From an uncultured archaeon (lineage in GTDB: Archaea > Iainarchaeota > Iainarchaeia > Iainarchaeales > GCA-2688035): a stretch of 30,044 nt of DNA. Made by a program: the position numbers and the translations under genes. Numbering within the stretch: the first letter of the stretch is position 1; each line of letters opens with the position of its first letter. Location: NCBI GenBank assembly GCA_964354805.1, contig CAYHBD010000007.1:1-30044 (forward strand), in the 5' to 3' direction. The notes beneath the pieces are model-generated. The model was not told the DNA's origin. It made no database searches and saw nothing but the letters and a program-made list of their open reading frames with translations. Shown here in pieces: positions 5,357 through 30,044 of the stretch.

Positions 5357-5357
5357 A

Positions 5358-5449
5358 CGGACCCGGAGGGATTCGAACCCTCGACCTACTGCTGACCCCC
5401 TTTGGAAAGGTAGAAGGCAGTCGCCCTATCCAGGCTAGGCTACGGGTCC
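5358..5449 (-). tRNA. tRNA-Arg(TCT) with 17-nt intron at 37/38 (5394-5410)
   Basis: GGACCCG/CGGGTCC acceptor, ACTGC/GCAGT anticodon stem, GAGGG-TTCGAAT-CCCTC T arm; BHB motif with CTTC/GGGG helix and TAC/TCA bulges; no CCA. Confidence 0.95.
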
Positions 5450-5494
5450 ATTATAATAAAATAATGCGTAAGGGGAATTAAAAGTTTTGTTTTT

Positions 5495-10605: not shown

Positions 10606-10850
10606 CGCGGGGGACGAGATTCGAACTCGCGCTTCCGTGAGGAAACACGCTGATTGGAATTTGGGTTTCTTTTCCCAACAGCCTTTTTAACAAAAAGGCT
10701 GGCGAAAAAAGTTCCTTTTCCCAAGGCTTTTTTGCGTGAGCAAAAAAGGCTTAGCCGTTAGGCATTTTTTCCTTTTCTTTCCCAAGGCTTTCTTTTTCTA
10801 AAAGAAAGGCTTTTCCAGGCGTGCGCATTAGACCGCTCTGCCACCCCCGC
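10606..10850 (-). tRNA. tRNA-Ser(GGA) with 161-nt intron (10652-10812)
   Basis: GCGGGGG/CCCCCGC acceptor, CACGC/GCGTG anticodon stem, CT-GGA-A|A loop, long variable arm, GCGAG-TTCGAAT-CTCGT T arm, G discriminator; mature length 84 nt. Confidence 0.9.
10666..10812. repeat. Three family A hairpin repeats inside the tRNA-Ser(GGA) intron
   Basis: Units at about 10666-10702, 10714-10752 and 10771-10812, each TTTCCCAA followed by a hairpin ending AAAGGCT(T/G). Confidence 0.9.
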
Positions 10851-10950
10851 ATTAAGGAAAAGAAGGCAGGGAAAAGCCTTTAAAGGAAATTTATTTTTGC
10901 AGTGGCGAAAGCGAAATAATAAAAAGGGGGAAAGGATTATTATTATTGCA

Positions 10951-12036
10951 ATGAATAAAAAGCAGAATGGCAAAAACACGGCGATTTGGGGTCCTGACGA
11001 GTGGCCTGCTGAAACATTCTTTTGCATTGCTGTTTCAAAAGATGGAAAAACAGTGAAGCAGGAGGGCAAGCACTATAAGGGATTTAACCGCTTGGTTGAC
11101 TCTTCTGCAATCAGCTGGGTGAATTGCTGCATTGATGATGTTGCTGACAATATTGAAGATATTGCCAGGCATTTTGGTTTCAGGAAAGAGCTGGCTAGAG
11201 ATTTGCTGACGCATAGAAGCAGTGCTTATGTTGACATGGGCGACGAGCTTGGATTGCTGCTGCCTGCAGTGAAAGTAAGGAACCTGCTTGTGCACATTTC
11301 ACCAATTTATATGCTGATCCGGAAGAACCTGGTTTTGTCTGTTCACAGCAGGAGGGTTACAAGGTGGATTAATTTCTTCAATTATGCTGAAACCTTTATG
11401 AGAAAAATTCCGCCGAATGCGCTGTTTAATGACAAGATTACGATGATTTTGATAAGGCTGTTGGGCAAGAATGACGAGAAGAATTTCGAGAACCTGCGCA
11501 TAATTGAAGAGGAAGGGGACAGAATAAACAGGATGTTAATCGACAGTGGGTCGCCCAGGACAAAACTTGGGGCAGAAATATACAGAATGAAGCACGCCTT
11601 GATCAGTTACATGGGCGCCTTATGGGCTTCGATGGATGTCTTGAACGATCTGCGTTACGGCGACAGCGAGTTAATCACTGATGACAGCGCTTTGCTGCAC
11701 GAAATCACGATTATTGCAAGCGATCTGACAAGCCACCTTGCTTTGGCAGAGCACATGAGCGAGGTGCTTGCATCAGGCCTGGAGGTGCTGCAAAGCATTT
11801 ACAACAACCAGCTGCAGGTTCTGAACAACAGGCTTTCTTTGACTGTAACCTGGCTGACTGTGCTTGGAACAGCGGTTCTTGTTCCAAACACGCTTGCTAC
11901 AATTTATGGAATTCCTGCAATCAGCGAGCACGCAAACTGGCAGGACATAATTTTGCTGTTGGTTGCCTCAACAGTAATCAGCGCGCTTGCGGCATACTTT
12001 GTAATCAAGAGAATGCTGCCAAAAAAAGTAGAGTGA
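10951..12036 (+). CDS. CorA-family divalent cation transporter
   Basis: Long soluble helical domain plus two C-terminal TM helices (NNRLSLTVTWLTVLGTAVLVPNTLATIYG); ATG 10951 preferred over TTG 10897. Confidence 0.85.
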   Translation: MNKKQNGKNTAIWGPDEWPAETFFCIAVSKDGKTVKQEGKHYKGFNRLVDSSAISWVNCCIDDVADNIEDIARHFGFRKELARDLLTHRSSAYVDMGDELGLLLPAVKVRNLLVHISPIYMLIRKNLVLSVHSRRVTRWINFFNYAETFMRKIPPNALFNDKITMILIRLLGKNDEKNFENLRIIEEEGDRINRMLIDSGSPRTKLGAEIYRMKHALISYMGALWASMDVLNDLRYGDSELITDDSALLHEITIIASDLTSHLALAEHMSEVLASGLEVLQSIYNNQLQVLNNRLSLTVTWLTVLGTAVLVPNTLATIYGIPAISEHANWQDIILLLVASTVISALAAYFVIKRMLPKKVE

Positions 12037-24883: not shown

Positions 24884-25533
24884 TGCGCTTTCGCCCTCTC
24901 AATGAATTTCTTCAATTTATTTAAGTCAATCTTTCTTTTATTGTTTTGCATCTTCACTCCGCTGTTCACATCAACGCCAAAAGGCTTAACTTGCTCAATC
25001 GCTTTTGCAATGTTTTCCGGCGTCAGGCCGCCTGCCAAAAAAACCGGCTTGCCGCACTCCGCAACAATTTTTGCCGCAATTTTCCAGTCCGCTTTTTTTC
25101 CAGTTCCACCGAGCTTTCTGCCGCTTTTTGAATCCAGTATAATGAAATCAACCGCGCTTTCAAAATGCTTTGCCTTTTCAATTGCTTTTTTATCCATTGC
25201 ATGCACGGTTTTAAAAATTTTCAGGGAAGGCATCAATTGGCGCAATTTCCCAATTTCCTCAACAGGCAGTTCTTTAACCAAGTGGATGGCATCTGCTCCA
25301 ATAAAACTGGACAAGCCGGCAATTTCTTCGCCTTTAACCAAATCGGTTAATGCAACCAGCGGAACATTTCCCTTCAATTGCTCAAACAATTCCCTTGCCT
25401 CTTCCCTTTCAACACCCCTCTCAGCACCGAATATTTCCACAACAAAACCAAGATAGTCTGCTCCCTGCCTTATTGCAGCAAAGCCATCCTCGGCATTCGT
25501 GATTCCGCAGATTTTCACTTTAACCATATTCAA
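24880..25533 (-). CDS. trpF: Phosphoribosylanthranilate isomerase
   Basis: [30 protein letters not shown]; ATG 25527 is an alternative start. Confidence 0.95.
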
Positions 25534-26309
25534 AACCCCAGCTCAAGCAATTTTGCCTCAATGTCCTGCACCTTCATAAAAGCGCTTCCAATTAGAACGG
25601 CATCAACTTTTCCCTTCACTGCCTCAATGTCCTTTGCCGAATTGAATCCCGATTCGCTTACAATTGTTTTCTCTTCAGGCAGCATGCTTCGCAAGCAAGC
25701 AGTGGTCCTCAAATCAACCTTCAACGTTGCCAAATCCCTGTTATTGATTCCGACAATTTCAGCCCTTGCAGCCAAAGCCTTGTCAACATCATAGCCTGAA
25801 TGCACTTCAACTAGGCACTGCAATCCAATGCTCCCTGCAACAGAGTGCAGCTTGCGCAGCTTTTCCTTTGCAAGCCCTGCAGCAATCAATAGGATTGCAT
25901 CTGCTCCAGCAGCCCTTGCTTCAAATAATTGATACTCATCTATAATGAAATCCTTTTGCAGCACTGGCAGAGCTGTTGCTTCCTTAACCTGTTGTACATA
26001 CTCAAGCTTTCCCTGAAAATATTTTTCATCAGTTAAAACGCTTATTGCCTGCGCGTGCTTATTGTAAACACCTGCAATCTGCAGCAAATCAAATTTCTCC
26101 CTCAAAACCCCCTCGCTTGGGCTTGCTTTCTTTATTTCCGCGATCAGATTGATTGGCCTTTGCGTTGAGCTGATTGCTTCCTCGAAATTCCGCACCGGAA
26201 ATTTATCCAAGCGCTTTTTCAATTCCAGCAGCGGCAGCTTCTTTTTTCTCGCTTCCACTTCCTTTTCCTTGTTCTGCAGAATCTCCTTCAGCAAATTCGG
26301 CTTCTTCAT
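25530..26309 (-). CDS. trpC: Indole-3-glycerol phosphate synthase
   Basis: IAEIKKASPSEG, SVLTDEKYFQG, KDFIIDEYQ, GINNRDL, SESG. Confidence 0.97.
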   Translation of the reverse strand: MKKPNLLKEILQNKEKEVEARKKKLPLLELKKRLDKFPVRNFEEAISSTQRPINLIAEIKKASPSEGVLREKFDLLQIAGVYNKHAQAISVLTDEKYFQGKLEYVQQVKEATALPVLQKDFIIDEYQLFEARAAGADAILLIAAGLAKEKLRKLHSVAGSIGLQCLVEVHSGYDVDKALAARAEIVGINNRDLATLKVDLRTTACLRSMLPEEKTIVSESGFNSAKDIEAVKGKVDAVLIGSAFMKVQDIEAKLLELGF

Positions 26310-26373
26310 TTTTTATCCCTTTTTTCACCTGCAAGAAATGCTTTTATATTGGTTTTGGGTAATATTACATATT

Positions 26374-26505
26374 ATGAATAATAAAACTATTCAGGTTAGT
26401 AAAACAAAAGAAATTGCAGAGCTGATGCAGCAAATTGATGAGGCAAACAAGTCGCCTGCTTTCAGGAAAGCAGCCAAGCGATTTATAAAACAACAGACTT
26501 CTTGA
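26374..26505 (+). CDS. Small helical protein, putative antitoxin to the convergent PIN gene
   Basis: ATG ORF of 43 aa MNNKTIQVSKTKEIAELMQQIDEANKSPAFRKAAKRFIKQQTS; TTTTATAT box at 26342-26349; stop 5 nt from the PIN stop. Confidence 0.6.
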   Translation: MNNKTIQVSKTKEIAELMQQIDEANKSPAFRKAAKRFIKQQTS

Positions 26506-26510
26506 TTCTT

Positions 26511-27002
26511 TCATTCAATCAATTCCTTCAGCTGGTTTAACCCAATAAATGTCGGCGTTCTTAGGTTGTTTTTTTCATTCACTTTCTCAAAAGCCCGCCT
26601 AGCCTGTATTGAGCGCATTGTTTTATTGTCTTCGCTGCACACAATGTCAAGCTTGTTTAGGGAAGCGAGCGCAACTATCAAAAAATCATTCGTCATTTTT
26701 GCTGACGCCACATGCCCTTTGTATTCACGCTTATACTCTGAAGCCAAAAATTCAATTAAATCGGTTAAAGGAAGCGAATGCTTTCCAATAATAGCATCAT
26801 ACAAATTCAATGCAAGCATCCGCACTTTCCCATCCTCAATCGATTTCTCTTTCGGGATTGCCCTTAACTCACCTCTAACCACACTGCTGCCATAAACCAC
26901 AATGTTCTCTTCCTCCTGCAATTTCACAGCTATGCCCTTGAATTCACTCAATATAAGAAACCCATAAATATTTGTATCAAGCAAAAGACGCAATTGCTTC
27001 AT
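26511..27002 (-). CDS. PIN-domain (VapC-like) ribonuclease
   Basis: LLLDTNIY, VVRGEL, NDFLIVALA and CSED supply the four acidic PIN residues; ATGA overlap with the trpD stop. Confidence 0.85.
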   Translation of the reverse strand: MKQLRLLLDTNIYGFLILSEFKGIAVKLQEEENIVVYGSSVVRGELRAIPKEKSIEDGKVRMLALNLYDAIIGKHSLPLTDLIEFLASEYKREYKGHVASAKMTNDFLIVALASLNKLDIVCSEDNKTMRSIQARRAFEKVNEKNNLRTPTFIGLNQLKELIE

Positions 27003-28021
27003 TTGTTACTCGCCCCAATCAATTCATTCAATTTGCGCAAAGCATTTCCGCTCTCAATGCTTTCCCTTGCTTTCCCAATGCCATCTTTAATGCTGCCAGC
27101 CTTTCCGTTTGCATAAATCGCTGCCCCAGCATTCAACAAAACAATGTCTCTTTTCGCTCCCTTTTCTTTTCCGCTCAAAATGCTATGCAATATTTCAGCA
27201 TTTCGTTCAGCTGTTTCGCCTGCAACCTCTTCCTCCCTGCCCCTCTTGAGCCCAAACTGCTCTGGCGAAATCTCATAGCGCTTTACCTTTGCGCCCTGCA
27301 CCTCAAAAACAGTTGTTTTATCGCTCAGGCTGATTTCGTCAAAACCATCATTTCCATGCACAACCAATGCACGCTTCACTTTCAAGCCAGCAAGCACCTC
27401 TGCAAGCTTTTCCGCAAGCTGCAAATCGAATACCCCAAGCAGATATGTCTGCGCATTCGCAGGATTTGTTATTGGCCCGAGGATATTGAAAATTGTCCTT
27501 ATGCCAAGCATTTTCCTTGCAGGCATTGCATAGCGCATTGCCGGATGGTGGCATGGCGCGAAAAGGAAAGCGATTCCGATTTTTTCAATCAGCCCTGCAT
27601 TTTTCTCTGCCGGCAAATCAATTTTCACTCCAAGCTTTTCCAATACATCAGCTGCACCGCATTTGCTGCTCACGCTTCTGTTTCCGTGCTTTGCAACAAG
27701 GCAGCCTGCTCCTGCAGCAACAAAGGCAGAAGCAGTGCTTACATTGAAAGTGCCTTTCTTGTCTCCGCCTGTTCCAACAACATCAAGCAAATCGCCTTTC
27801 ACCTTGGGCTTCACGCAGGCAACAACGCTTCTCATACTCTCGGCTGCGCCGATTATTTCCTCAACAGCTTCCCCTTTTTCCGCAAGGGCTTTTAAAAATT
27901 CAGCCAATTTTTCTGTTGCAACCTTGCCATTCATTATTTCGTCAAAAAGCCGCTTTGCCTCCTGCCTGCTCAAATCCTTGCCTGCGCCTGCTTTTGCAAT
28001 CGCTTCTTCAATTTCACTCAT
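26999..28021 (-). CDS. trpD: Anthranilate phosphoribosyltransferase
   Basis: DVVGTGGD, FNVST, KHGNRSVSSKCGAAD, RTIFNILGP, DGFDE. Confidence 0.97.
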   Translation of the reverse strand: MSEIEEAIAKAGAGKDLSRQEAKRLFDEIMNGKVATEKLAEFLKALAEKGEAVEEIIGAAESMRSVVACVKPKVKGDLLDVVGTGGDKKGTFNVSTASAFVAAGAGCLVAKHGNRSVSSKCGAADVLEKLGVKIDLPAEKNAGLIEKIGIAFLFAPCHHPAMRYAMPARKMLGIRTIFNILGPITNPANAQTYLLGVFDLQLAEKLAEVLAGLKVKRALVVHGNDGFDEISLSDKTTVFEVQGAKVKRYEISPEQFGLKRGREEEVAGETAERNAEILHSILSGKEKGAKRDIVLLNAGAAIYANGKAGSIKDGIGKARESIESGNALRKLNELIGASNK

Positions 28022-28601
28022 TGCCCTCACCGCACATTTTTATCAGGTTCTCGATTATTTTTCCGCCGCATGCTGTCAGAATGCTTTCAGGGTGGAATTG
28101 CACTCCTTCAATGAAGTATTTTTTGTGCCTTACTGCCATTACCTTTTCATCCTTGCTGTGGGCAGTCACCTGCAAGCAAGAGGGAATTCTTTTTCCTGCA
28201 AGCGAATGATACCTGCCTGCCTGGAAGGGGTTCTCCAATCCTGTGAATATTGTTTTTCCGTCGTGCATTATTTTGCTGGGCTTTCCGTGGACTGTTTCAT
28301 TCGCTTTTCCAACCACTCCCCCAAACGCCTCAATAATGCACTGGTGCCCAAGGCAAACCCCGAAAACAGGCAGAACGCCCTTGTATTCTTTGATTAATTC
28401 AATGCAAACCCCGGCTTCCTTTGGAGAGCCAGGGCCAGGGCTTATTACAATCAGCCTTGGCAGGAATTCTTTCACTACCGAATGGATTTTCTGCATTGGC
28501 GCATTGTTTCTGTAAACAAGCACTTTGCAATTGCGCTTTGCAAACTCGTCAACCAGATTGAAAGTAAAACTGTCAAAGTTGTCAATGAAGAGAACATTCA
28601 T
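28014..28601 (-). CDS. trpG: Anthranilate synthase component II
   Basis: IDNFDSFTFNL, ISPGPG, GVCLGHQ, RYHSL, QFHPES. Confidence 0.96.
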   Translation of the reverse strand: MNVLFIDNFDSFTFNLVDEFAKRNCKVLVYRNNAPMQKIHSVVKEFLPRLIVISPGPGSPKEAGVCIELIKEYKGVLPVFGVCLGHQCIIEAFGGVVGKANETVHGKPSKIMHDGKTIFTGLENPFQAGRYHSLAGKRIPSCLQVTAHSKDEKVMAVRHKKYFIEGVQFHPESILTACGGKIIENLIKMCGEGNE

Positions 28602-28651
28602 TTTCTCACCAAAGCAATATTTTTAAATATAGGAACATCAACAATATTTGT

Positions 28652-28729
28652 ATGGTTAGGAAAAAGGTTAAGGAAATGATCAAAGCCTTCGTAAAGGAAG
28701 ACAGAAAGCTTTTGAAAGCTTTGAGCTAA
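28652..28729 (+). CDS. 25-aa peptide, putative antitoxin to the convergent Fic/Doc gene
   Basis: ATG GTT AGG...AGC TAA gives MVRKKVKEMIKAFVKEDRKLLKALS; TTTTAAATA box at 28621-28629; stop overlaps the Fic/Doc stop. Confidence 0.55.
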   Translation: MVRKKVKEMIKAFVKEDRKLLKALS

Positions 28730-29133
28730 TTTTTTTCTGCATGTTTTCTTAGCCATTTGAATATGCTCCTTATAGTGTGCTTGTATTGGGAAACCTCAAA
28801 AATGAATTCTTTGCTCTCGGCAAAAGGCAAAATCAACTTGAATCCGTTTAGCGTGAAGAAAATCTTTGTTGCCTCAATTGCAGTCCTCTTGTTGCCGTCA
28901 GCAAAAGGGTGCGAAAGATGGTTAATAAAGTAAATTATGTAAGCCCCCTTGTATAAAATTGATTCGTGTTTATTTGGAAAATTGAAATCATTCCTTATTT
29001 TAAAAACCAGGAAATCAACGTCCGCTTCCTTTACAGGGCCTCTTTTGCCCCCGGTTTCCTCCACTATGGCACGGTTTAATTCAATAAACTCGTCAAAAGT
29101 CAAATAATTGATTTTTTGCCCCCCCATTTTCAC
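28726..29133 (-). CDS. Fic/Doc family toxin (Doc type)
   Basis: HPFADGNKRTA motif with the Doc-type Lys; about 135 aa; GTGA overlap with the trpE stop (ATG 29127 is an alternative start). Confidence 0.92.
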   Translation of the reverse strand: MKMGGQKINYLTFDEFIELNRAIVEETGGKRGPVKEADVDFLVFKIRNDFNFPNKHESILYKGAYIIYFINHLSHPFADGNKRTAIEATKIFFTLNGFKLILPFAESKEFIFEVSQYKHTIRSIFKWLRKHAEKN

Positions 29134-30044
29134 TCACTCTCCGCCAGCTCAATCGCCCTCAGGCAGGCTTTTGCCTTGTTGCCTGTTTCCTCAAACTCTT
29201 TTTCCGGAATGGAATCAAAAACAATTCCGGCGCCTGCCCTCACAAACGCTTTCCCCTTTTTCATTCTGATTGACCTTATCACAATAGCCGAATCAAAATC
29301 CCCGCTTGGAGTCAGGTAACCAATGCTGCCTCCGTAATAGCCTCTCTTTGTTTTCTCCAATCTCCTCAGCAATTCCATTGCCTTCACTTTTGGGGCTCCT
29401 GTTAATGTCCCCATGTTCATGCTTGCAAGGTATGCGTGCAGTGCATCCAATTCCGGCTTTAGAGTGCCGCTTACATTGCTCACAAGGTGCATTATGTGGC
29501 TGTATTTTTCAACAAAGTGTGGCCTGTCAACAAATCGGCTTCCCGGAACGGAAACCCTTGCAACATCGTTTCTTGCCAAATCAACAAGCATTGTGTGCTC
29601 TGCCAGTTCCTTTTCATCAGTTTTCAGCTCGTTCTCATACCTGCTGTCCAGTTCAGGGTCAATTTTCCCGTTCACCAGGCCCCTAGGCTTTGTTCCCGCA
29701 ATCGGCCTTATTTCAATCTTTTTCTCTGCATTGCTTCCCTCCACTTTGAGGAATGTTTCAGGGCTGCTTCCCAACAAAACGCCTGTTTCTGTTTTCATAT
29801 AAAACATATACGGAGATGGATTCAATTCTCGCAATTGCTTGTATATAGCGAATGGCTCTGCTTTTGTTTCAACAATCGTTGTCCTGCTTGGCACAATCTG
29901 GAAAACATCCCCAGCAACAATGCGCTGCCTGCATTTTTTTACTATGGAAATGAATTCCTTTTCGGTTGTGTCAGTGGAAATTTTCAATTTAATTTTTTTT
30001 TCTTTCACAATTTTTTCTCTTTTTTTGTTCTCATTTAATTTAAT
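29130..30044 (-). CDS. trpE: Anthranilate synthase component I (5'-truncated by the window edge)
   Basis: NPSPYMF, SSPE, PIAGTKPRG, AEHTMLVDLARND, GTLTGAPKVKAM; the frame stays open to position 30044. Confidence 0.97.
   Translation of the reverse strand: MKLNENKKREKIVKEKKIKLKISTDTTEKEFISIVKKCRQRIVAGDVFQIVPSRTTIVETKAEPFAIYKQLRELNPSPYMFYMKTETGVLLGSSPETFLKVEGSNAEKKIEIRPIAGTKPRGLVNGKIDPELDSRYENELKTDEKELAEHTMLVDLARNDVARVSVPGSRFVDRPHFVEKYSHIMHLVSNVSGTLKPELDALHAYLASMNMGTLTGAPKVKAMELLRRLEKTKRGYYGGSIGYLTPSGDFDSAIVIRSIRMKKGKAFVRAGAGIVFDSIPEKEFEETGNKAKACLRAIELAESE

Follow-up and report, generated by a model that had tools for sequence, protein, structure and literature searches.

Probable Mobile Toxin-Antitoxin-type Cassettes with Very Short Convergent Partner Genes at Two Junctions of an Archaeal trp Operon

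The trp operon of an uncultured archaeon of the Iainarchaeota contains two additional gene pairs, each consisting of an enzyme toxin gene and a very short open reading frame (ORF) that faces it tail to tail on the opposite strand. The operon is encoded on contig CAYHBD010000007.1 (30,044 nucleotides (nt); here, the window), the seventh contig (contig 7) of an archaeal genome bin with a size of 1.38 Mb and a completeness of 88.5%. Homologous proteins bear the database names Diapherotrites and archaeon GW2011_AR10, in agreement with an assignment to this DPANN phylum. The two pairs are probably independent, mobile toxin-antitoxin (TA)-type cassettes that were inserted at the trpE|trpG and trpD|trpC stop/start junctions. 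This level of confidence applies to the reading as a whole, in which the cassettes are mobile, the peptide neutralizes the toxin, and the toxin is expressed from the host operon. The gene anatomy, the conservation of both peptides, the empty sites in related genomes, and the repeats flanking related cassettes were observed directly.

Results

The trp operon is located on the minus strand in the gene order trpE, Doc, trpG, trpD, PIN, trpC, trpF, trpB, trpA. The first inserted gene (28726..29133, minus strand) encodes a Doc-type Fic toxin of 135 amino acids (aa) from a GTG codon (Pfam Fic, E 1.1e-8; NCBIfam TIGR01550). This GTG overlaps the trpE stop codon (TGA, 29130-29132) in a GTGA sequence at 29130-29133, and an alternative ATG for Doc is present at 29127, 2 nt past the stop. 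The second inserted gene (26511..27002, minus strand) encodes a PIN (VapC-like) toxin of 163 aa (PF01850, 29.1 bits against a cut-off of 23.6), the ATG of which overlaps the trpD stop codon in an ATGA sequence at 26999-27002. Doc is faced by a 25-aa ORF (28652..28729, plus strand) whose stop codon overlaps that of Doc, such that 4 nt are common to both ORFs; we read its product as a minimal Doc antitoxin consisting of the neutralizing helix only. PIN is faced by a 43-aa ORF (26374..26505, plus strand) that ends 5 nt before the PIN stop codon and is read as encoding a minimal PIN antitoxin. The downstream trp gene is displaced in both cases (124 nt for the Doc cassette and 201 nt for the PIN cassette), and the coupled position is now that of the toxin.

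A TATA box lies between each small ORF and the displaced trp gene. The sequence TTTAAATA (28623..28630), between the 25-aa ORF and trpG, is centered ∼26 nt before the peptide ATG (28652) and ∼24-26 nt from the opposite-strand trpG ATG (28601). Likewise, TTTATATT (26342..26349), between the 43-aa ORF and trpC, is centered ∼28 nt before the peptide ATG, with the opposite-strand trpC ATG (26309) ∼36 nt off and GGTGA in between. Given these distances of ∼26-28 nt, a leaderless or nearly leaderless peptide mRNA is implied. Directly after the stop codon of the 25-aa ORF, a T7 run (28730..28736, plus strand) constitutes a candidate archaeal terminator that would end the peptide transcript. An earlier note on this DNA had described the co-directional overlaps of Doc and PIN with the trpE and trpD stop codons, the opposite-strand 25- and 43-aa ORFs, a TATA box upstream of each, and one layout shared by two unrelated toxin folds, and had remarked that neither peptide has room for a DNA-binding domain. 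The sequence and coordinates agree with that description on every point.

The catalytic residues of both toxins are conserved. Doc scored 42.9 bits against the TIGR01550 DOC_P1 model (cut-off 38.65), and its motif HPFADGNKR conforms to the Doc-type pattern HxFx(D/N)(A/G)NKR; residues H75, F77, G80, N81, K82 and R83 are invariant in the Doc alignment. The relatives of this protein are only distant (at most 38% identical). A word-based search for close relatives returned only 3 proteins, and most Docs recovered by genome and metagenome scans were bacterial, with canonical antitoxins encoded upstream. For PIN, comparison of 31 homologues showed that, of the acidic active-site residues, D119 never varies, whereas conservation is at least 90% for D9, E45, D106 and D125. 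Of 215 Iainarchaeota genomes, 35 (from 20 of 79 genera) encode homologues, with as many as 7 copies per genome, and the PIN profile matched at least 671 protein clusters (E ≤ 1e-10), mostly annotated as hypothetical, with source labels that include Diapherotrites, Micrarchaeota, Aenigmarchaeota and Woesearchaeota. The profile had no PDB relative at E ≤ 0.1. A reading of PIN as a HARP or protein-only RNase P was rejected; it gained no support from any sequence test and is at odds with a distribution that is patchy and multi-copy.

The genome encodes a paralogue of the window PIN on contig 46 that is 45% identical and directly abuts an rfbB-like gene. Other PIN genes of the same genome have ordinary upstream antitoxins, that is, they form conventional VapBC pairs, and the convergent layout therefore belongs to the families described here and not to the organism. 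A third convergent pair was noted on contig 9 (10651-11377), where a 100-aa ribbon-helix-helix-like ORF (plus strand, 10651-10953) meets the gene for a 145-aa PIN (minus strand, 10940-11377) in a 14-nt tail-to-tail overlap; the antitoxin-like partner in this pair is full-size.

Conservation of the small ORF beside PIN was assessed in loci from Iainarchaeota, together with one Aenigmarchaeota-labeled and one Woesearchaeota-labeled locus. A convergent ORF of at least 33 aa that begins with ATG and ends between −60 and +40 nt from the PIN stop codon was found in 35 of the 35 homologous loci with enough flanking sequence, typically overlapping the PIN ORF by 4-20 nt. In the Aenigmarchaeota- and Woesearchaeota-labeled loci, the peptide gene is present but was left uncalled by annotators, and opposite the contig 46 paralogue lies a 36-aa ORF that shows clear homology to the window 43-aa peptide in its C-terminal half. 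The convergent peptide gene is the family-wide norm for the PIN family. In the alignment of the peptides (A2), a MYQKT-like N terminus precedes a helix, which is followed by a KDPEF...HTG-type segment at the C terminus; peptides of a second subtype have ...LKA as their ending. The peptides have kept 50-67% amino acid identity with synonymous sites mostly saturated (dN 0.2-0.5; dN/dS 0.18-0.75 where computable), and their profile matched 29 database proteins, with E-values down to 9e-13, all of them hypothetical or unnamed. Searches of Pfam, NCBIfam and PDB sequences with both the PIN and the Doc peptide families gave nothing above noise, a protein atlas search with the PIN peptide gave no usable match, and no conserved conventional antitoxin was seen upstream of the PIN homologues.

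Two co-directional, ATGA-coupled ORFs of 52 aa (28598-28756) and 49 aa (26365-26514) were considered as conventional downstream partners of the window toxins. They were rejected because the co-directional frame is open in only 23 of the 35 PIN loci and its sequences are unalike, being unrelated Phe/Leu/Cys-rich mirror frames of Lys/Glu-rich peptides. Genes for PIN-partner peptides without an adjacent PIN were also noted next to complete cassettes (L006, 1055-1219, and L012, 1254-1403, in oriented locus coordinates); these are either orphan antitoxin-like genes or remains of cassette arrays.

Structure prediction, proposed in the earlier note as a check on each pair, was applied to PIN. The model of PIN with the 43-aa peptide scored 0.87, whereas the best of 3 controls scored 0.00. 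In calibration, 58 of 80 solved complexes attained this mark, as did 2 of 110 mismatched pairs, a rough guide since our own alignments were used. The runs agreed in at least 97% of contacts, with a pLDDT of at least 80 for the partner. The modeled interface includes PIN residues 9-11, 45 and 124-127, among them the conserved acidic residues D9, E45 and D125, and the 43-aa peptide is thus predicted to cover the PIN active site. Neither PIN nor the peptide has a sequence relative in the PDB.

The 25-aa peptide beside Doc scored 28.1 bits against a profile of Doc partner peptides. Convergent homologues of 25-33 aa, with a stop codon that overlaps or abuts that of Doc, occur in five Iainarchaeota loci (L033, L034, L035, L041 and L044). 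In ∼23 other Iainarchaeota genomes, Doc is followed by a co-directional 42-aa ORF, the C-terminal 28 aa of which align with the short convergent peptides. The same type of partner, co-directional or convergent, was found beside Docs of Halobacteriales, Methanoperedens, Micrarchaeota, Anaerolineales and metagenomic contigs. The alignment of Doc partners (A4) contains an invariant Leu and a nearly invariant Ala near the C terminus, and a TATA-like box is present at −26 to −33 in all seven related convergent partners with an ATG start. The A4 profile was then run against every frame of 20 aa or more situated no further than 450 nt from one of 190 Doc genes (∼40 frames per locus). In addition to 36 downstream partners, it selected, in 40 loci, the C terminus of the canonical antitoxin that is encoded upstream of Doc and in the same direction (12-22 bits); the antitoxins matched in this way end in a ...KELYKRLA-type helix. 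Given this match to canonical antitoxin C termini, the 25-aa peptide is best interpreted as a free-standing copy of the helix that binds the toxin, without the DNA-binding part.

Conservation beside homologous toxins was thus found for both small ORFs, in every testable locus for PIN and by profile for the Doc partner family, and on this evidence both are real, conserved partner genes of their toxins. The Doc subfamily with the co-directional 42-aa partner (L036-L060) is single-copy and strongly conserved over many genera, and it resembles a fixed cellular pair more than a selfish module. A protein atlas search with the 42-aa partner gave weak leads only, namely one cluster (score 0.77) with PF26044 (Antitox_halo) in 19% of its members, an unconfirmed family assignment.

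The occurrence of TATA boxes was examined across the PIN family, with at most one mismatch to TTTAWATA allowed and the center required at −45 to −20. Such a box was present in 16 of 31 peptide genes, most often at −25 to −27, a distance typical of archaeal mRNAs that lack a leader. In 500 shuffles, by comparison, the mean was 3.5 genes and the number never exceeded 10. The regions upstream of PIN itself were not enriched in TATA boxes (4 of 33 versus 3.1 expected). A T-rich CTTTTATTC-type element was observed ∼26 nt before the PIN start in L006, L007, L008, L012, L015, L018 and L021; it may be a weak cassette promoter, and is absent where PIN abuts a host gene.

Neither window toxin has a promoter of its own, and the start codon of each overlaps or adjoins the stop codon of the trp gene before it. 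Consistent with this arrangement, the two toxins would be transcribed with the trp operon and are probably translationally coupled to it. Among 36 PIN loci, 7 loci representing ∼5 insertion events abut the upstream gene, and the rest have a spacer of 35-600 nt. The PIN genes that abut a co-directional upstream gene are those of the window and L172 (4-nt overlaps), L002 and L010 (gaps of 0 and 2 nt, at what is one orthologous rfbB site), and L024 and L175 (gap of 4 nt). For Doc, 4 of 6 convergent loci in Iainarchaeota abut the upstream gene (the window, −4; L035, −17; L041, −4; L034, +18). Borrowing of a host promoter does take place here and recurs at other loci, but the PIN family is not defined by it; it looks like a by-product of cassette insertion at gene ends and stop/start junctions. 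The earlier note had proposed a convergent, promoter-borrowing TA design. The promoter-borrowing part holds for the window, where both toxins lack a promoter and overlap trp stop codons, but applies to only a minority of PIN loci. The convergent part is the norm for PIN but a minority variant for the Doc partner, which is usually encoded co-directionally downstream.

The trp operons of related genomes were examined for empty sites. In the closest relatives, G076 and G062 (trpD 82 and 85% identical, respectively), trpE and trpG are joined by junctions of 6-12 nt that lack the Doc cassette; for G076, the trpE stop is also given as overlapping the trpG ATG. The trpD stop of G076 overlaps the trpC start, without a PIN cassette. 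The check for empty sites suggested in the earlier note was therefore positive for trpE/trpG in both relatives and for trpD/trpC in G076. Given that these empty junctions are compact, the window cassettes entered exactly at the stop/start junctions. This comparison indicates recent insertion of the window cassettes.

Direct repeats were evaluated against a null distribution from mismatched loci, in which the maximum score was 13. Repeats above this null flank 7 of 35 PIN cassettes (L002, 52 nt; L172, 62 nt; L030, 37 nt; and L174, L012, L009 and L016). They are 14-62 nt in length, are spaced 703-816 nt apart, and bracket both toxin and peptide; in L030, the first copy ends with the TAA of the upstream gene. 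Similarly, repeats of 16-37 nt flank 5 of 9 convergent Doc cassettes (L033, 34 nt; L034; L035; L041, 16/16; and L109), with a spacing of 508-513 nt and, in one case, 793 nt. The related cassettes measure ∼0.5 kb for Doc and ∼0.7 kb for PIN (range 0.5-0.8 kb) and carry no recombinase. Given the flanking direct repeats, the cassettes are regarded as mobile units.

In the window, the PIN cassette is bounded by TAACAAATGAAG (26997..27008, minus strand), which spans the trpD stop and PIN start, and TAAAAAATGAAG (26304..26315, minus strand) at the trpC start. The copies are 11/12 identical, have a spacing of 693 nt, and take the form TAA(C/A)AAATGAAG; PIN and trpC both begin with ATGAAG. The Doc cassette is bounded by the shorter pair GTGAAAATG (29125..29133, minus strand), containing the trpE stop and the Doc ATG, and GAGAAAATG (28599..28607, minus strand) at the trpG start, which are 8/9 identical with a spacing of 526 nt and take the form G(T/A)GAAAATG. 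A 15-nt stretch, 14/15 identical, was also observed at the 3′ ends of trpD (27016-27030) and PIN (26516-26530), 500 nt apart; it could be due to chance or be a trace of the inserting recombination.

A second Doc cassette beside trpE was found in genome G150, which belongs to another family (L041; contig 1, 478663-482022). Here, a Doc that is 28-29% identical to the window Doc directly follows trpE with a 4-nt overlap and is accompanied by a 27-aa convergent peptide gene, with trpD ∼1.4 kb further on. Within the perfect 16-nt repeat of this cassette lie the ATG codons of both Doc and the displaced gene that follows it. The presence of Doc after trpE in both genomes is due either to an old site common to the two or to target preference, and it keeps a trp-specific reading alive.

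The 3′ part of trpE, encoding anthranilate synthase component I (29130..30044, minus strand), is 67-89% identical to trpE of relatives and runs off the window; the other host genes at the two junctions are trpG (28014..28601, minus strand; GATase, 1.2e-55), trpD (26999..28030, minus strand; Glycos_transf_3, 3.6e-96), and trpC (25530..26309, minus strand), which lies ∼690 nt away from trpD owing to the PIN cassette. In 29 relatives, the order trpE-G-D-C-F is syntenic and mostly compact, and trpD is 57-85% identical, a pattern that indicates vertical inheritance of the operon. The suggestion in the earlier note that the modules stabilize an acquired operon is accordingly not favored, since the operon is syntenic in relatives and the sites of the closest relatives are empty. 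Other inserts were noted at trp junctions. Three relatives carry a co-directional gene for 233-236 aa between trpG and trpD (L063, 824-1503; L080, 701-1380; L068, 2512-3203), whose product has a DxDGT-type N-terminal motif and appears HAD hydrolase-like by eye, and L088 and L065 contain further inserts (168 and 185 aa). The trp junctions of Iainarchaeota relatives are repeatedly used landing sites. Elsewhere in the window, a tRNA-Glu(TTC) gene at 5357-5450 is 94 nt long, which implies an intron.

Discussion

The data can be explained by the following working model. An enzyme toxin gene, encoding either Doc (a kinase-type Fic protein) or a VapC-like PIN RNase, would enter in the orientation of the host gene and be transcribed, and probably translated, along with the trp operon. 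The tail-to-tail gene would produce a very short helical peptide from its own TATA box, and the peptide would neutralize the toxin by direct binding over the active site. Given that the peptide contains no DNA-binding domain, the pair would not be an autoregulated operon. On the other strand, trpG and trpC may also be re-started from these TATA boxes, which lie 24-36 nt away from the starts of the two displaced genes. Binding of the peptide to PIN is taken from the structural model only, and toxicity, neutralization and the pattern of transcription are what we infer.

Several points count against this model. That the enzymes are toxic and the peptides rescue is an assumption based on the families to which they belong. 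The PIN family, which is large and often multi-copy, may serve in defense or regulation instead of classical addiction. VapBC complexes are well represented among solved structures, and the score of the PIN-peptide complex may in part be fold-level memory. The N-terminal MYQKT-type motif of many PIN peptides fits no explanation. In addition, the repeats that flank the window cassettes are short, and each is non-significant alone (11/12 and 8/9), although they fit the family pattern.

The same peptides could be conserved partners without being antitoxins, acting as a sensor, activator, localization factor or chaperone in defense or regulatory modules. We consider this unlikely. Such a role would suit a PIN family that is very large, multi-copy and mostly hypothetical by annotation, the orphan peptide genes found in arrays (L006 and L012), and the one pair of Doc with a 42-aa ORF that is single-copy and strongly conserved in ∼23 genomes, more domesticated than selfish in look. 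It accounts less well for a modeled peptide that lies across the catalytic acidic residues of PIN and for Doc peptides that resemble the C-terminal, toxin-neutralizing end of canonical upstream antitoxins. Moreover, the catalytic motifs of both enzymes are intact, and for this reason an inhibitor would be needed.

A role for RNA in place of the peptide, with the antisense RNA itself as the antidote in the manner of a type I or type III-like system and the small ORFs incidental or secondary, is very unlikely. The convergent, 3′-overlapping layout is that of the type I pairs txpA/RatA and bsrG/SR4 of B. subtilis, and a read-through transcript of the operon would be fully complementary to the peptide mRNA. 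However, the PIN peptide is conserved at the amino acid level where synonymous sites are saturated, and the protein sequence of the Doc partner is kept whether its gene is convergent or co-directional. An open complementary frame exists at just 23 of 35 loci, these frames are unalike, and the overlap with the toxin ORF ranges only from −5 to ∼46 nt. A still simpler proposal, that the small ORFs are chance frames in AT-rich spacers beside solitary or decaying toxins, has a negligible probability. The ORFs are very short and match no Pfam or NCBIfam family, yet the frame is kept in 35 of 35 PIN loci, the A2 and A4 alignments of PIN peptides and Doc partners hold up, 29 database proteins match the peptide profile (E down to 9e-13), TATA boxes are enriched at a fixed distance, and the catalytic residues of the toxins are intact. 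By the measure of these conservation data, the chance-frame proposal is already refuted.

A more elaborate version of the cassette model, which we regard as speculative and quite unlikely, treats each cassette as an operon-embedded switch. Here, the toxin would have taken over the host stop/start junction such that its dose follows transcription and translation of the trp operon. The quasi-symmetric TATA box would fire in both directions, giving a leaderless antitoxin mRNA and a re-start of the displaced trp gene, and read-through of the operon would be antisense to the antitoxin mRNA over its full length. Once trp is derepressed by Trp starvation, the level of the toxin would rise and that of the antitoxin fall, which would tie growth arrest to amino acid supply, with Doc acting on EF-Tu/aEF1A-type targets and PIN on RNA.

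Returning to the reading of the pairs as mobile TA-type cassettes, surveys of TA pairs encoded on the same strand would be blind to such partners, which lie on the other strand, are 25-60 aa in length, are often uncalled, and belong to no protein family. If neutralization is true, the peptides would be the smallest kind of protein antitoxin, the neutralizing helix alone, expressed from its own promoter and not by autoregulation through a TA complex. The reach of the PIN family is wide, given the number of protein clusters and of DPANN source labels noted above. Cassettes of 0.5-0.8 kb between repeats of host gene ends can land inside an essential biosynthetic operon without breaking it, and they offer a concrete system for how such elements move and how a host operon tolerates them.

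Comparison with Known Systems

The closest functional parallel to the PIN pair is type II VapBC, in which a PIN toxin is combined with a ribbon-helix-helix, AbrB, Phd or helix-turn-helix antitoxin (Makarova et al. 2009, PMC2701414). That survey treats TA pairs as conserved two-gene operons and leaves many solo toxins unexplained; the words "convergent" and "opposite strand" are absent from it. Our literature search found no published convergent protein toxin-antitoxin pair, nor either peptide. The PIN cassette shares with VapBC a PIN toxin with conserved acidic residues, a small partner predicted to lie over the active site, and a patchy, multi-copy distribution. Unlike in VapBC, the partner of PIN is encoded on the opposite strand, tail to tail and with its own promoter, is only 33-60 aa in length, and has no recognizable DNA-binding domain or family. 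There is no two-gene operon, which makes autoregulation by a complex unlikely.

Doc belongs with the Phd-Doc and MazE/AbrB-Doc systems (phage P1 family; TIGR01550), to which it is linked by the motif HxFx(D/N)GNKR and a TIGR01550 score above the cut-off, and the sequence of its window partner resembles the C-terminal end of canonical upstream Doc antitoxins. By contrast with these systems, the partner would be a helix only (25 aa), without the N-terminal Phd/YefM or AbrB DNA-binding or dimerization domain. Its gene is downstream and convergent with its own TATA box, not antitoxin-first, and the toxin would be made from the host operon.

Type I systems with a convergent, 3′-overlapping antisense RNA are known from B. 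subtilis, namely txpA/RatA, bsrG/SR4 and yonT/SR6 (PMC5848175). The cassettes resemble them in that convergent units meet at their 3′ ends and in having independent promoters for toxin and antidote. They differ in that the toxins are enzymes of 135-163 aa and not small membrane peptides, and in that the antidote gene is, by its conservation, protein-coding. The antitoxins of the reverse-order type II systems higBA, mqsRA and hicAB contain DNA-binding domains, and their genes share a transcript with the toxin gene. The order in these systems is toxin first, as it is here, and many Doc relatives have the peptide gene co-directionally downstream; unlike their counterparts, however, the window partners have no DNA-binding domain and are not co-transcribed with the toxin.

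In summary, the pairs would work like type II systems but miss two classical features, the co-transcribed operon and the DNA-binding domain of the antitoxin. What is new here is a Doc cassette with a 25-aa partner that profile matches tie to the C termini of canonical antitoxins. Equally new is the presence of two toxin folds in one biosynthetic operon, where in each case the host stop/start junction has been captured by the toxin.

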